Shown here: positions 37,447-59,360 of the stretch, one piece after another | How positions within the stretch are numbered: the stretch's first letter is position 1 | Layout: each line of letters starts with the position of its first letter | Source: Escherichia coli | Lineage (GTDB): Bacteria > Pseudomonadota > Gammaproteobacteria > Enterobacterales > Enterobacteriaceae | Direction: 5' to 3' (one strand) | NCBI RefSeq assembly: GCF_003334765.1 | Contig: NZ_QOWT01000008.1 | DNA: 64,000 nucleotides | Made by a program: the position numbers and the translations under genes | The notes under the pieces: generated by a model | The model's input: the letters and a program-made list of their open reading frames with translations, nothing else | The model's database searches: none | Told to the model about the DNA's origin: nothing

Positions 37447-37634
<188 letters not shown>

Positions 37635-38294: not shown

Positions 38295-38405
38295 TAAAAA
38301 GAATTCAGAATCAGGCCGGAGTGCTAAATACTCCGTAAACACGGTCGTACATCCAGCCGGTAGCCTGATTCCTTGCATTGAGTGATGTACGGAGTTTATA
38401 GAGCA

Positions 38406-45003: not shown

Positions 45004-45780
45004 ATGTCCGAAACAAAAAACGAACTTGAAGACCTGCTGGAAAAAGCAGCAACTGAACCGGCGCACCGCCCGGCCTTTTTCCGTACTCTACTGGAATCCA
45101 CCGTCTGGGTGCCTGGTACGGCGGCGCAGGGCGAGGCTGTGGTTGAAGATAGCGCGCTTGATTTACAGCACTGGGAAAAAGAAGACGGCACCAGCGTCAT
45201 TCCTTTTTTCACCTCGTTAGAAGCACTTCAACAGGCGGTTGAAGACGAACAGGCATTTGTCGTAATGCCCGTTCGCACGCTGTTTGAGATGACACTTGGC
45301 GAAACGCTCTTCCTTAATGCCAAACTGCCAACCGGTAAAGAATTTATGCCGCGTGAAATCAGTTTGTTGATTGGTGAAGAGGGAAATCCGCTGAGCAGCC
45401 AGGAAATCCTGGAAGGCGGTGAATCGCTGATATTATCGGAAGTCGCAGAGCCGCCAGCACAAATGATTGATTCACTCACCACCTTATTTAAAACCATTAA
45501 GCCGGTGAAGCGTGCTTTTATTTGTTCAATTAAAGAGAACGAAGAGGCACAGCCTAATTTACTTATTGGCATTGAAGCCGATGGTGATATCGAAGAAATT
45601 ATTCAGGCGACGGGAAGTGTAGCGACCGATACATTACCTGGCGATGAACCAATCGATATTTGTCAGGTGAAAAAAGGGGAAAAAGGAATTAGCCACTTTA
45701 TTACCGAACATATTGCGCCATTCTATGAACGTCGCTGGGGTGGTTTTTTGCGTGACTTTAAACAGAATCGGATAATCTAA
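45004..45780 (+). CDS. sseB: SseB (enhanced serine sensitivity protein B)
   Basis: ORF 44995..45780, start MSETKNELEDLL at 45004, 258 aa. Confidence 0.85.
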   Translation: MSETKNELEDLLEKAATEPAHRPAFFRTLLESTVWVPGTAAQGEAVVEDSALDLQHWEKEDGTSVIPFFTSLEALQQAVEDEQAFVVMPVRTLFEMTLGETLFLNAKLPTGKEFMPREISLLIGEEGNPLSSQEILEGGESLILSEVAEPPAQMIDSLTTLFKTIKPVKRAFICSIKENEEAQPNLLIGIEADGDIEEIIQATGSVATDTLPGDEPIDICQVKKGEKGISHFITEHIAPFYERRWGGFLRDFKQNRII

Positions 45781-45783
45781 AAT

Positions 45784-45804
45784 ATGCCGCCCAAAGGGCG
45801 GCAT
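45784..45804. terminator. bidirectional hairpin terminator at sseB 3' end
   Basis: atgccgccc-aaa-gggcggcat; U-rich tract on the minus strand (atttta) and weaker on plus. Confidence 0.55.
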
Positions 45805-45813
45805 TCGGGCTTA

Positions 45814-45936
45814 CTTGCTGCTCTGAAGGTTGTTAACCACCAGTAAATTGTCGCCGGAGAGACTCCGGTTATTATTTACCTCGGTTAACAGCGCACCAGA
45901 AACAATAAGTACGATACAAAAGCACCGTATCTTCAT
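45814..45936 (-). CDS. candidate small ORF, 40 aa (MKIRCFCIVLIVSGALLTEVNNNRSLSGDNLLVVNNLQSSK), hydrophobic N-terminal segment
   Basis: ATG 24 nt downstream of the 24-aa ORF stop, preceded by hairpin tgcggtc...gaccgca, no clear SD; inside putative RyfA-like transcript. Confidence 0.3.
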
Positions 45937-45960
45937 TGTGCGGTCCATGCGAAGACCGCA

Positions 45961-46035
45961 TCACGACAGCACCACTGGCGATATTGCCGCGATAGCAAGC
46001 GCTGTGAAACACCTGCATTTACGGCCACGGAACAT
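45961..46035 (-). CDS. candidate small ORF, 24 aa (MFRGRKCRCFTALAIAAISPVVLS), basic N-terminus then hydrophobic tail
   Basis: ATG preceded by AGGAAAGG Shine-Dalgarno; inside putative RyfA-like transcript; not in the 60-aa-minimum ORF track. Confidence 0.3.
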   Translation of the reverse strand: MFRGRKCRCFTALAIAAISPVVLS

Positions 46036-46160
46036 CCTTTCCTAAAGCCAGCGCCCGTTTGCGAGACGGCGGAAAGGGCCGCAGTGGATAATACACTAAC
46101 AGAACAATAATAACTCTCTTTTGCTTGACAAAAAGAGAGTTACTGGCGAGTATTGTCTCC

Positions 46161-46258
46161 GCTGAGACGCGCTTGCATTACTACGGTAATACAACCTGCT
46201 GGAAAGGCCGCGAACCGGACCAGCAACAAAAAACCGCCTGATTTTGGCGGTTTTTTGT
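46161..46258 (+). ncRNA. candidate short sRNA from module A (about 100 nt)
   Basis: perfect -35 TTGACA (46125-46130), 17-bp spacer, weak -10 gagtat (46148-46153), intrinsic terminator 46229-46258; promoter block conserved in module B. Confidence 0.25.
46229..46258. terminator. bidirectional rho-independent terminator (module A)
   Basis: aaaaaaccgcc-tgatttt-ggcggtttttt with U-tracts on both strands. Confidence 0.6.
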
Positions 46259-46481
46259 TTTTTAAAGGAAAGTGAATTTACATGTTTAAGTAATATCTTT
46301 TACCGGTTAGAATTTTTAATTTTGAGCAGGATTTGTTTATATTTGTCTGAATTCGGACTAATAAGCCAGGTTATTTTATTACCGAACACGGCGGAAAGGG
46401 CCGGTGTCGATAATACGCTAAATAAACAATAATTACTCTCTTTTGCTTGACAAAAAGAGAGTTACTGGTGAGTATTGTTTT

Positions 46482-46586
46482 GCTGTGAAGCACCTGCGTT
46501 GCTCATGTAACACAAGTCAACCTGCTGGAAAGGCCGCGAACCAGACTAGCAATAAAAAACCGCCAAATTCGGCGGTTTTTTATTGC
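46482..46586 (+). ncRNA. candidate short sRNA from module B (about 105 nt), sibling of module A sRNA
   Basis: TTGACA (46447-46452), 17-bp spacer, gagtat (46470-46475), terminator 46553-46586 (shared with sseA on the other strand). Confidence 0.25.
46553..46586. terminator. bidirectional rho-independent terminator (module B; also terminates sseA)
   Basis: aaaaaaccgcc-aaattc-ggcggtttttt. Confidence 0.6.
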
Positions 46587-46597
46587 CTGTAAAATAC

Positions 46598-47443
46598 TTA
46601 TTTCACTGGCTCAACCGGTAAATCTGCCCGCGCGCCCCATTCACTCCATGCGCCGTCGTACAGTTTCACGTTTGGCACATCCAGCGTAGCGAGTGCTAAC
46701 AAAACCACGGCTGCCGTTACACCAGAGCCGCAGCTGACGATAATTGGTTTGTCGTAGCTGACGCCGCGACCAAAAAATATCGCATCCAGTTCATCGGTCG
46801 TTTTTAGTTCGCCTTCGCGCACCAGTTCCGTCCACGGAACATTCAGTGCTCCGGGAATATGTCCGCGACGTAAACCTGGGCGAGGTTCATCAACTTCTGC
46901 GTTAAAACGTGCAGCCGGGCGGGCATCAATAATTTGCGCCGTATTTTCATGGCTTGCCAATAATACATCGGTTACTTTCACCACGGCTTCAGGATTAAAC
47001 GCGGCGTTAAACTCTCCTTCCGGCAGCTCTACTGCACCTTCTTCTAACAGCAGATCATCGCGCTGCCAGCCTGCAAGTCCACCCCCCAGAATCGACACTT
47101 TCTCTACACCAAAGGTGCGCAGCATCCACCATGCTCGTGGGGCTGAGAAAAGATTACCTTCGTCATAGACAATCAGGTGCTTATCCTGGTTAACGCCTAA
47201 TTCACGCATCGCCACGGCGAACGTTTCCGGGCGCGGCAGCATGTGCGGAAGCGGGGAAGTGTGATCAGAAAGCGCTTCGATATCAAAAAACACTGCGCCG
47301 GGAATATGTCCATTCAGATACTCCTGAGCAACGTTACGATCCTCCTGTCCAGGCGACGCCATGCGGGCATCGATAATCTGAATTTCCGGGTCATCAATAT
47401 GTTCGGCGAGCCAGTCGGCTCCTACAAACCATGTCGTGGACAT
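46598..47443 (-). CDS. sseA: 3-mercaptopyruvate sulfurtransferase SseA (tandem rhodanese domains)
   Basis: ORF 46598..47602, start MSTTWFVGADW at 47443, 281 aa; active-site Cys in CGSGVTA. Confidence 0.9.
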   Translation of the reverse strand: MSTTWFVGADWLAEHIDDPEIQIIDARMASPGQEDRNVAQEYLNGHIPGAVFFDIEALSDHTSPLPHMLPRPETFAVAMRELGVNQDKHLIVYDEGNLFSAPRAWWMLRTFGVEKVSILGGGLAGWQRDDLLLEEGAVELPEGEFNAAFNPEAVVKVTDVLLASHENTAQIIDARPAARFNAEVDEPRPGLRRGHIPGALNVPWTELVREGELKTTDELDAIFFGRGVSYDKPIIVSCGSGVTAAVVLLALATLDVPNVKLYDGAWSEWGARADLPVEPVK

Positions 47444-58131: not shown

Positions 58132-59250
58132 ATGCATAACCAGGCTCCAATTCAACGTAGAAAATCAACACGTATTTACGTTGGGAATGTGCCGATTGGC
58201 GATGGTGCTCCCATCGCCGTACAGTCCATGACCAATACGCGTACGACAGACGTCGAAGCAACGGTCAATCAAATCAAGGCGCTGGAACGCGTTGGCGCTG
58301 ATATCGTCCGTGTATCCGTACCGACGATGGACGCGGCAGAAGCGTTCAAACTCATCAAACAGCAGGTTAACGTGCCGCTGGTGGCTGACATCCACTTCGA
58401 CTATCGCATTGCGCTGAAAGTAGCGGAATACGGCGTCGATTGTCTGCGTATTAACCCTGGCAATATCGGTAATGAAGAGCGTATTCGCATGGTGGTTGAC
58501 TGTGCGCGCGATAAAAACATTCCGATCCGTATTGGCGTTAACGCCGGATCGCTGGAAAAAGATCTGCAAGAAAAGTATGGCGAACCGACGCCGCAGGCGT
58601 TGCTGGAATCTGCCATGCGTCATGTTGATCATCTCGATCGCCTGAACTTCGATCAGTTCAAAGTCAGCGTGAAAGCGTCTGACGTCTTCCTCGCTGTTGA
58701 GTCTTATCGTTTGCTGGCAAAACAGATCGATCAGCCGTTGCATCTGGGGATCACCGAAGCCGGTGGTGCGCGCAGCGGGGCAGTAAAATCCGCCATTGGT
58801 TTAGGTCTGCTGCTGTCTGAAGGCATCGGCGACACGCTGCGCGTATCGCTGGCGGCCGATCCGGTCGAAGAGATCAAAGTCGGTTTCGATATTTTGAAAT
58901 CGCTGCGTATCCGTTCGCGAGGGATCAACTTCATCGCCTGCCCGACCTGTTCGCGTCAGGAATTTGATGTTATCGGTACGGTTAACGCGCTGGAGCAACG
59001 CCTGGAAGATATCATCACTCCGATGGACGTTTCGATTATCGGCTGCGTGGTGAATGGCCCAGGTGAGGCGCTGGTTTCTACACTCGGCGTCACCGGCGGC
59101 AACAAGAAAAGCGGCCTCTATGAAGATGGCGTGCGCAAAGACCGTCTGGACAACAACGATATGATCGACCAGCTGGAAGCACGCATTCGTGCGAAAGCCA
59201 GTCAGCTGGACGAAGCGCGTCGAATTGACGTTCAGCAGGTTGAAAAATAA
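58132..59250 (+). CDS. ispG: 4-hydroxy-3-methylbut-2-enyl diphosphate synthase IspG (GcpE)
   Basis: ORF 58132..59250, 372 aa. Confidence 0.95.
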
Positions 59251-59360
59251 TAACGTGATGGGAAGCGCCTCGCTTCCCGTGTATGATTGAACCCGCATGG
59301 CTCCCGAAACATTGAGGGAAGCGTTGAGGGTTCATTTTTATATTCAGAAAGAGAATAAAC

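Follow-up and report, generated by a model that had tools for sequence, protein, structure and literature searches.

The sseB-sseA spacer of K-12-type Escherichia coli: a timPR toxin-antitoxin locus that is very probably a half-decayed tandem duplication retaining a second TimR-like RNA

The spacer between sseB and sseA in the 64-kb window (the whole stretch of Escherichia coli DNA that was analysed) is very probably the K-12-type timPR type I toxin-antitoxin locus, a tandem duplication that has half decayed. It holds an intact timP toxin gene and its antitoxin RNA, TimR, together with the leftover of a second copy in which the small RNA is kept and the toxin lost. The biology of timP (ryfA) and TimR at this spacer has been described before, and the core finding carries no novelty because ryfA, timP and timR are all annotated at the corresponding site of the E. 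coli reference genome (MG1655 RefSeq annotation, which grades timR and timP as 'putative') and the mechanism is established in Salmonella. What is incomplete is the annotation: as the original prediction held, the locus is under-annotated rather than new, MG1655 having no entry for the small RNA of module A, the repeat unit next to timP (module B adjoins sseA). Direct evidence comes from family memberships and coordinates, from complementarity and covariation, and from the distribution of the locus across genomes; the features are collected in Table 1.

Table 1. Features of the sseB-sseA spacer (window coordinates)
Feature	Position	Strand	Basis or remark
RyfA RNA, the timP toxin mRNA, 304 nt	45779..46082	-	Rfam RF00126, 314.9 bits
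timP CDS, 41-aa small toxic inner-membrane protein MKIRCFCIVLIVSGALLTEVNNNRSLSGDNLLVVNNLQSSK	45811..45936	-	RefSeq timP WP_001380605.1 / b4812
Stem-loop 4 GCGGUCUUCGCAUGGACCGCAC, just upstream of the timP AUG	45938..45959	-	paired in Rfam consensus
Predicted TimR-binding site in the timP 5'UTR, 'B-type' allele (mRNA nt 64-82, stem-loop 2)	46001..46019	-	direct repeat and predicted pairing
Likely -10 TATTAT, timP/ryfA promoter	46088..46093	-	5 nt upstream of annotated 5' end 46082
Module A palindrome	46111-46142 (12-nt arms 46111-46122 / 46131-46142)		100% complementary inverted repeat around GCTTGACA
-35 TTGACA of module A TimR-type promoter	46125-46130		centre of module A palindrome
Module A RNA promoter	TTGACA 46125-46130, 17 nt, GAGTAT 46148-46153	+
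Module A small RNA (IS129/ECS011), TimR paralogue, 'A-type' seed	46159..46257	+	absent from MG1655 annotation
Bidirectional terminator T1	46225-46259		AACAAAAAACCGCC-TGATTTT-GGCGGTTTTTTGTT; inverted repeat, 14-nt arms, 100% complementary; fold computed
IS128 RNA	46214..46422	-	Rfam RF00125, 262.1 bits, above gathering score 80
Module B 5' block, palindrome and divergent promoters	46388-46478		90% identical to 46066-46156
Module B minus-strand TATTAT	46415..46410	-	from sequence
Module B plus-strand promoter	TTGACA 46447-46452, 17 nt, GAGTAT 46470-46475	+	from sequence
TimR antitoxin sRNA, 'B-type' seed	46482..46581	+	100% identical to MG1655 timR b4811
Bidirectional terminator T2	46549-46586		module B, end of TimR

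The minus-strand RNA of ~303 nt that had been predicted to be RyfA was recovered by the Rfam RyfA model on the expected strand and with the expected boundaries, the match covering model positions 1-296 of 296 end to end (gathering score, 80 bits). This RNA, the only ryfA detected in the Rfam scan of the window, is identical to MG1655 ryfA (b4440), and its 3' end lies at the terminator shared with sseB (45784-45804). The encoded protein matches NCBIfam NF040796 (toxic_TimP) over profile positions 1-40 of 40, with 86.8 bits against a cut-off of 45; toxicity and membrane targeting of TimP on overproduction have been reported from Salmonella only (PMC7667032). The TATTAT of the promoter is invariant across all four aligned E. 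coli spacer types, and the stem-loop 4 pattern recurs in Yersinia, Rahnella, Erwinia, Pantoea and Citrobacter; its Salmonella counterpart masks the Shine-Dalgarno sequence (PMC11228461). Stem-loops 1 and 3 of the window sequence can form 7 contiguous pairs (nt ~30-36 with nt ~103-110), and E. coli is included in the covariation figure of PMC11228461. Two short ORFs had also been assigned to the RNA: both exist as reading frames, but only timP matches a protein family, the other frames not being conserved. The commonest E. coli allele retains only 5 codons of the 24-aa upstream ORF, the 48-aa ORF is missing from two of three alleles, and no protein family match or conservation was found for these two or for the 29-aa ORF of IS128. 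timP is the sole conserved and supported ORF of the spacer.

The divergent type I arrangement suspected at this locus is indeed that of TimP/TimR in Salmonella Typhimurium (timPR, formerly ryfA or STnc2070), as attested by the RF00126 and NF040796 matches and by the RefSeq annotation. The two loci share the sseB/sseA neighbourhood, a divergent sRNA with its own promoter and terminator, and complementarity of the sRNA 5' end to leader stem-loop 2 at an equal distance from the ORF. The stem-loop 4 sequence and a predicted complementarity of stem-loop 1 to stem-loop 3 are also present in the window. In contrast to Salmonella, the K-12-type locus combines a single toxin gene with a pair of TimR-like genes, and its best-matching TimR lies ~400 bp from timP, beyond a paralogue and a leader remnant. 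Furthermore, the TimP ORF encodes 41 aa in the window, compared with 117 nt (+145 to +261) in Salmonella, where STM2534 is located between sseA and timP (PMC7667032). Our literature search found no experiment on K-12 timP/TimR. Other type I systems, zorO-orzO, shoB-ohsC and tisB-istR, resemble timPR in that a small hydrophobic toxin is coupled to a divergent sRNA that does not overlap it and pairs over 18-19 nt with the toxin 5'UTR, but have no sequence relationship with it, the ohsC (28.8 bits) and OrzO-P (25.8 bits) matches falling on terminators.

The duplication itself, anticipated in the original prediction, was borne out. Modules 46066-46257 and 46388-46581, 322-326 bp apart, show ~87% mean identity in pairwise alignment and comprise two pairs of direct repeats, 46066-46156 / 46388-46478 (90% identity) and 46192-46255 / 46518-46581 (84% identity); no further module copy occurs elsewhere in the 64-kb window. 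Both modules combine a TTGACA-17-GAGTAT promoter with an intrinsic terminator, the arrangement of a sigma-70-dependent divergent, non-overlapping gene of ~100 nt. The predicted palindrome with a 12-bp stem around TTGACA has fully complementary arms in module A; it is not kept in the O157-like spacer, which retains only TTGACA and GAGTAT. The bidirectional terminators are likewise present in both modules, T1 being common to the module A sRNA on the plus strand and IS128 on the minus strand. The repeated blocks are palindromic, GC-rich and flank terminators, as ordinary REP-like or dispersed intergenic repeats without a specific function would be. We give this reading practically no credence: the window has exactly two copies of the 5' block ACGGCGGAAAGGGCCG and exactly two of the 3' block CTGCTGGAAAGGCCGCGAACC, against 0-0.09 expected, and the seed regions were found at one place per genome, always the sseB-sseA locus, in 5426 genomes. 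These copy numbers refute the REP-like alternative, which had been named in advance as fatal to the prediction; moreover, the blocks bear promoters, a conserved sRNA fold and covarying seeds.

The 5' end of TimR from module B (46482-46500) can form 19 of 19 contiguous pairs, including 2 G-U, with the leader site at 46019..46001 (-40.4 kcal/mol, equalled by none of 500 shuffles). The predicted K-12 site corresponds in position to that of Salmonella, where the validated interaction joins the TimR 5' end to leader stem-loop 2 (PMC7667032; PMC11228461); repression of TimP by TimR has been shown in Salmonella (PMC7667032) and, at the RNA level, in Shigella dysenteriae (PMC5333039). Judged by predicted pairing, the antitoxin that fits best, and the one that is annotated, comes from the distal module B rather than from the module adjoining timP. 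An Rfam scan of 45700-46700 at a permissive threshold detected no TimR/STnc2070-type family; its matches, to the rimP leader, RNAI, ohsC, OrzO-P and AgrB, all lie at terminators and below the gathering scores. In BL21(DE3), an IS element sits in the terminator of the matched TimR copy.

The original prediction had instead cast the adjacent module A sRNA as the antitoxin, its 3' block pairing imperfectly with the extreme 5' end of RyfA, and the second module as a source of sibling or decoy RNAs, an arrangement that we consider very improbable. There is indeed such complementarity (-22.2 kcal/mol), each module conserves both blocks, and the divergent layout suits type I systems, but the pairing is not above chance, since 28-43 of 500 shuffles do equally well. 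In all TimR variants, the stem of an internal hairpin is built from the 3' block, which hardly changes between Yersinia and Escherichia, so that nothing covaries with the RyfA 5' end. The interaction validated in Salmonella (PMC7667032, PMC11228461) also argues against this assignment, and the annotated timR is module B. The kinship of the second module with the Shigella ryfA siblings is real, but this module is no ORF-less decoy, as its plus-strand RNA is timR itself.

The diverged middles that had been recorded for the modules are, as judged by sequence covariation, the specificity seeds. Seed and timP site change in step, both between strains (E. coli types A, B and O) and between genera (Yersinia, Rahnella, Erwinia, Pantoea, Citrobacter and Superficieibacter), with the GCUGGAAAGGCCGC..CCAGC hairpin unchanged throughout. 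Among the 20 enterobacterial loci examined, 17 have a seed that matches, located 187-204 nt upstream and with the conserved hairpin and terminator after it; a simple ungapped search gave no clear seed in the other three (C. amalonaticus, Y. aleksiciae and Y. similis). The cross-genus scan used the stem-loop 4 pattern in species-representative genomes, where ~20 chance matches in unrelated phyla were ignored and Salmonella did not match the exact pattern. Cognate site/seed pairs range from -36 to -43 kcal/mol, whereas TimR-B on site A reaches -22.4 kcal/mol, equal to the shuffle background for TimR pairing (-22 +/- 3 kcal/mol). Across 5426 complete E. coli genomes, site B was found in 1971 and seed B in 2020, and site A in 2909 and seed A in 4546, these counts being marginal totals rather than per-genome co-occurrences. 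The K-12 layout is present in ~1,640 of the 5,426 genomes.

K-12 expresses the module A RNA, seen as bands of ~95 and ~100 nt on northern blots (PMC3175480). The probe used in that study maps to 46161-46195, with 11 mismatches to module B, and the ECS011 reads correspond to 46159-46229 (PMC3175480 and its supplement). The RNA has the predicted TimR fold, its seed is identical to the cognate TimR seed of single-module strains, and its 5' end is a predicted fit to the timP allele of other E. coli lineages. Against the resident timP site, this seed has 2 mismatches and 3 G-U pairs, so that complementarity is continuous only in part, at -32.0 kcal/mol. The RNA thus pairs with the resident site above background and may therefore not be a true orphan, although its action on timP would be weak or absent.

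A more active role is conceivable: both sRNAs could be working antitoxins of the single timP, with module A cross-reacting by G-U-tolerant pairing to give redundant or graded repression. In keeping with this, a single shuffle in 500 equals the energy of TimR-A on site B, G-U pairs survive at three of the five seed differences, and the RNA is both expressed in K-12 and kept by ~1,640 genomes. We nevertheless find this rather unlikely. In S. dysenteriae, RyfB1 lowered RyfA1 but left its sibling RyfA2 unaffected, the two differing in a variable region of 5 nt that overlaps the pairing site (PMC5333039); small seed differences therefore confer specificity. The near-equal numbers of site B and seed B genomes are expected if the matched partner is retained, and the reverse cross, TimR-B on site A, lies at background.

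A broader proposal, which we offer as tentative and put well short of even chances, is that in ~30% of complete E. coli genomes, including K-12, timPR is a three-RNA circuit in which IS129/ECS011, located between the toxin gene and the matched antitoxin, may act as a weaker, G-U-tolerant second antitoxin or on other targets. Mutually poorly compatible 'lock-and-key' site/seed alleles (A, B and O157-like) would then segregate within one species, with recombination at the conserved 5' and 3' blocks reshuffling them. Our literature searches found no description of two TimR copies in K-12, of the three-RNA layout or of within-species site/seed alleles.

IS128, on the minus strand of the second unit, appears from its sequence to be a truncated leader, the remnant of a lost second timP copy. 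It consists of ~20 nt of timP-like leader, an 11-14-nt fragment of the sseB 3' end (46375-46388) and a 120-nt AT-rich spacer (46261-46380); the second unit of the window thus keeps ~20 nt of leader rather than a second full-length ryfA. In the intact double locus of E. coli M160133 (L008), the unique part of IS128 is followed by the sseB' fragment and then by a second timP. The minus-strand product of the second module likewise gives no ground for calling that module a decoy, IS128 being read as such a stump and having gone undetected with a strand-specific northern probe (PMC3175480). It could still be a functional minus-strand RNA, for instance one that sponges the module A sRNA in cis-antisense: where the two overlap at the shared terminator, a perfect 44-nt duplex with the 3' end of the sRNA is possible (-83 kcal/mol). 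The high model score, the TATTAT retained in module B and the listing of IS128 among differentially expressed RNAs in one RNA-seq study (PMC4676190) would agree with a function, which we regard as improbable all the same: the sequence is what a deletion left behind (leader stump, sseB fragment and spacer), the likely -10 comes downstream of the Rfam 5' end (46422), and the family is missing from most phylogroups (PMC3318445). A search for pairing of either TimR seed with IS128 returned only the trivial antisense overlap at the common terminator.

The closest parallel to the truncated duplication is the ryfA1/ryfB1 - ryfA2/ryfB2 locus of S. dysenteriae (Fris et al. 2017, PMC5333039), a tandem duplication of the ryfA/sRNA unit in which the two sRNAs differ mainly where each pairs with the variable region of its own RyfA; specificity of RyfB1 for RyfA1 was demonstrated there (PMC5333039). 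S. dysenteriae and E. coli M160133 have two full ryfA genes, whereas the window has one and a stump. The order of sRNA types in the window (A then B) is the reverse of that in L008, and one unequal crossover does not suffice to derive it from that locus; unit 1 of K-12 has a mosaic structure. As we infer the order of events, the change from an L008-like double locus to the K-12 order would need at least two recombination events. The legacy K-12 names fit onto the same map: IS128 and ECS011/IS129 correspond to 46214-46422 (-) and 46159-46229 (+), and C0614, converted from old coordinates to ~46399-46485 (+), is read as the promoter and start of timR. In the literature found, IS128, IS129 and C0614 are sRNAs of unknown function without a link to timPR.

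Regulation in K-12, which we infer by analogy, would run as follows. The minus strand would yield the 304-nt timP mRNA (RyfA), encoding the 41-aa membrane toxin TimP. By homology with Salmonella, where the translation mechanism has been worked out (PMC7667032; PMC11228461) and the mRNA is not activated by processing (PMC11228461), timP translation would need a pseudoknot of leader stem-loops 1 and 3, and the single-stranded 5' end of the ~100-nt TimR would block translation by pairing with leader stem-loop 2 (nt 64-82). In the window strain, the matching TimR would come from distal module B, adjoining sseA. Module A, directly upstream of timP, would give the second expressed TimR-like RNA (IS129/ECS011), with the same body and a seed that probably fits the timP allele frequent in other E. 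coli lineages and is imperfect on the resident one. The minus-strand promoter of module B would face only the leader stump, IS128, because the second toxin copy and the duplicated sseB fragment have been deleted. The toxin model leaves unexplained the phenotypes of UPEC and APEC ascribed to RyfA as a regulatory RNA (PMC8205139, PMC13188913), which counts against it.

For E. coli, the reference annotation thus lacks an expressed second TimR-like gene at 46159-46257 (MG1655 ~2653680-2653778 by coordinate mapping), and what the Rfam family IS128 models appears to be the remnant of a deletion, not a gene. In K-12-type strains, the TimR-like RNA beside timP is not its best match, and deletions of 'timR' or 'ryfA' must reckon with two TimR-like RNAs whose seeds differ.

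The 817-bp spacer between the sseB stop (45780) and the sseA stop (46598) contains two paralogous units, module A and module B, with the parts listed in the table. The duplication originally predicted here is real: direct repeats 46066-46156/46388-46478 (90% identity) and 46192-46255/46518-46581 (84%) are spaced by 322-326 bp, and pairwise alignment gives a mean identity of 87% between the units. The 5' and 3' blocks occur twice each, and no more, in the 64-kb window, and the seed regions (the sRNA 5' ends that pair with the timP leader) map to a single place per genome among 5426 complete E. coli genomes; therefore, these are not REP-like dispersed repeats, an alternative that had been raised. 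The plus-strand -35 TTGACA shares 5 bp with a TTGTCA on the minus strand at the center of each palindrome (46125-46131 and 46447-46453); in the O157-like spacer, the palindrome is absent, and TTGACA and GAGTAT alone are kept. A single difference from MG1655 in the 900 bases compared (G vs A at 46335, in the AT-rich spacer) indicates that the window strain is closely related to K-12 but is not MG1655. Strain H3 matches the window at 100%.

Features of the sseB-sseA spacer, site/seed types, and other Rfam matches in the window
Feature	Position	Strand	Detail
5' block of each unit			ACGGCGGAAAGGGCCG
Palindrome of each unit, centered on TTGACA	arms 46111-46122 / 46131-46142 (module A)		arms 100% complementary
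Diverged middle	between palindrome and 3' block in each unit		
3' block of each unit			CTGCTGGAAAGGCCGCGAACC
Bidirectional terminator	closes each unit		
ryfA (RF00126)	45779-46082	minus	Rfam, 314.9 bits, full length
timP coding sequence	45811-45936	minus	41 aa, RefSeq annotation
IS128 RNA	46214-46422	minus	Rfam, 262 bits
Type A			GAGACGCGCTTGC
Type B			GTGAAACACCTGC
O157-like type			GTGGGGTGCCTG
GlmY, naRNA4, iscRS stability element, sroE (in order; above gathering score)	8688-8835, 37507-37578, 38295-38404, 59250-59341		all expected for this E. coli chromosome region

RyfA was recovered on the minus strand at the proposed size, with a TATTAT (46093..46088) located 5 nt upstream of its 5' end and invariant across all spacer types aligned. 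TimP reaches 86.8 bits with the NCBIfam toxic_TimP model (cut-off 45 bits), and ryfA, timP and timR are annotated in MG1655, which identifies the suspected type I, timPR-like system. The second short ORF of the original prediction did not hold up: the remaining ORFs in the RyfA RNA match no protein family, only MFRDR is left of the 24-aa upstream ORF in the most frequent E. coli allele, and the 48-aa ORF lacks a start codon in 2/3 alleles. In Salmonella, mutation of the start codon of the corresponding upstream ORF left timP translation unaffected (PMC11228461).

On the plus strand, each unit has a TTGACA-17 nt-GAGTAT promoter ahead of an RNA of about 100 nt. The fold is the same in every sRNA variant: the 5' end is left single-stranded, a small hairpin that differs between variants by compensatory changes comes next, and the 3' block then folds into an invariant hairpin ahead of the terminator. 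Pairing of this block with the RyfA 5' end, as first proposed, was rejected (-22.2, equalled by 28-43/500 shuffles), the block being already engaged in its internal hairpin. The MG1655 timR (b4811, 2653356-2653455) is identical to 46482-46581, so that the module B RNA, once regarded as an ORF-less sibling or decoy, is the annotated antitoxin. The module A RNA is without annotation in MG1655. ECS011 (IS129), a candidate from deep sequencing, is identical in sequence to 46159-46229, and its northern probe (46161-46195), which differs from module B at 11/35 positions, hybridized to K-12 bands at ~95 and ~100 nt (PMC3175480 and its supplement). Another legacy candidate, C0614, maps to 46399-46485 (+) when converted from older MG1655 coordinates (2651474-2651560); it spans the module B promoter and the first timR bases, on the timR strand, and probably represents a TimR signal that was mapped imprecisely. 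The strains reported to lack C0614 are also those reported to lack IS128 (PMC3318445).

Salmonella TimR base-pairs through 18 nt of its 5' region with the 5'UTR of timP, as proven by compensatory mutations, and blocks translation in vitro (PMC7667032); the target is stem-loop 2 of the leader, and binding disrupts the stem-loop 1/stem-loop 3 pseudoknot required for timP translation (PMC11228461). By analogy, timP translation in E. coli would depend on a pseudoknot of stem-loops 1 and 3, and the TimR 5' end would bind stem-loop 2, break the pseudoknot and stop translation. The counterpart of the Salmonella site in the window is timP mRNA nt 64-82 (46019..46001). The module B seed forms 19/19 pairs with this site, including 2 G-U (-40.4 kcal/mol; 0/500 shuffles as good), whereas the module A seed pairs imperfectly, with 2 mismatches and 3 G-U (-32.0 kcal/mol; 1/500). 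This argues that the best-matching antitoxin of the resident timP is the distal module B RNA and not the partner originally assigned, and the diverged middles of the modules are the predicted specificity seeds.

Among E. coli spacers, a change in the site goes with a change in the seed next to it. Cognate duplexes of types A, B and O range from -36 to -43 kcal/mol, and TimR-B on site A reaches -22.4, the shuffle background. Site B and seed B were detected in 1971 and 2020 of the 5426 genomes, respectively; site A is present in 2909/5426 and seed A in 4546/5426, and thus, from these marginal totals rather than a per-genome table, about 1,640 genomes carry an A-type seed but no A-type site. This number agrees with the roughly 1,500-1,650 genomes with spacers at least 99% identical to that of the window. 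Single-module strains A/A, B/B and O/O were all found. In 17 of 20 enterobacterial loci examined (Yersinia, Rahnella, Erwinia, Pantoea, Citrobacter, Superficieibacter, Escherichia), the seed sequence recurs in the locus's own timP leader, and after the seed come the GCTGGAAAGGCCGC..CCAGC hairpin, almost unchanged from locus to locus, and a terminator, in agreement with the earlier result of Andresen et al. One Yersinia pekkanenii assembly has the stem-loop 4 pattern of timP on three different contigs (L032, L033, L034), pointing to several copies of timP in this species.

Of the 5426 genomes, 2244 have the 120-nt AT-rich stretch (46261-46380). In strain M160133 (locus L008), an 87-bp piece of the sseB 3' end comes after this stretch, together with a second, complete timP that has a TimR of its own; this locus is a full tandem duplication, as in the ryfA1/ryfA2 siblings of Shigella dysenteriae. 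In the window, only 11-14 nt of the sseB fragment are left (46375-46388, identical to 45697-45710), joined directly to the module B 5' block, which points to a deletion that took out the second toxin gene and the greater part of its leader. The Rfam IS128 RNA, which gave no signal in a strand-specific northern (PMC3175480), appears to be a remnant of this deletion, namely, the timP-leader stump plus spacer. Unit 1 of K-12 is a mosaic (B-like at 46005-46058, A-like at 46082-46195, position-1-like at the terminator), and the sRNA order is B then A in M160133 but the opposite in K-12; together, these features suggest that the parts were reshuffled through recombination at the two conserved blocks, 5' and 3'.

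In BL21(DE3) (NC_012971.2, L003 2371-3810) and 06-00048 (L007), the module B sRNA (timR) carries an IS3-family ISEcB1 in its terminator, inserted in BL21(DE3) at the position that corresponds to ~46569 of the window; BL21(DE3), which retains timP, may therefore be without a properly terminated cognate TimR. Strain 06-00048 has also lost the promoter of timP, along with the first ~60-75 nt of its leader (2808-2814 in its locus; window 46006 joined to 46493). The breakpoint falls within the timP site/TimR-B seed, which are 19-bp direct repeats at the DNA level, suggesting that the pairing sequences themselves can serve as deletion substrates. About 335 genomes in the 80-90% identity band encode a different distal sRNA (L005 1669-1833, L009 1609-1771) with the TimR body, terminator and its own TTGACA-GAGTAT promoter; it lacks the 5' block, and its unrelated 5' end is complementary to no timP site (-18 to -19 kcal/mol). 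In PK8217 (L010 734-1500), IS1A takes the place of the promoter and sRNA of module A and of the greater part of the AT-rich spacer, leaving timP with the module B sRNA alone, a natural 'module A deletion'.

Overall, the locus is the known timPR system, its duplication is related to the known Shigella siblings, and the extra RNAs bear the legacy names IS128, IS129/ECS011 and, probably, C0614. Three points are not described in the papers searched and represent incremental additions to this known system: the interpretation of IS128 as what a deletion left behind, the displacement of the matched TimR, and the existence of different seed alleles within the species.
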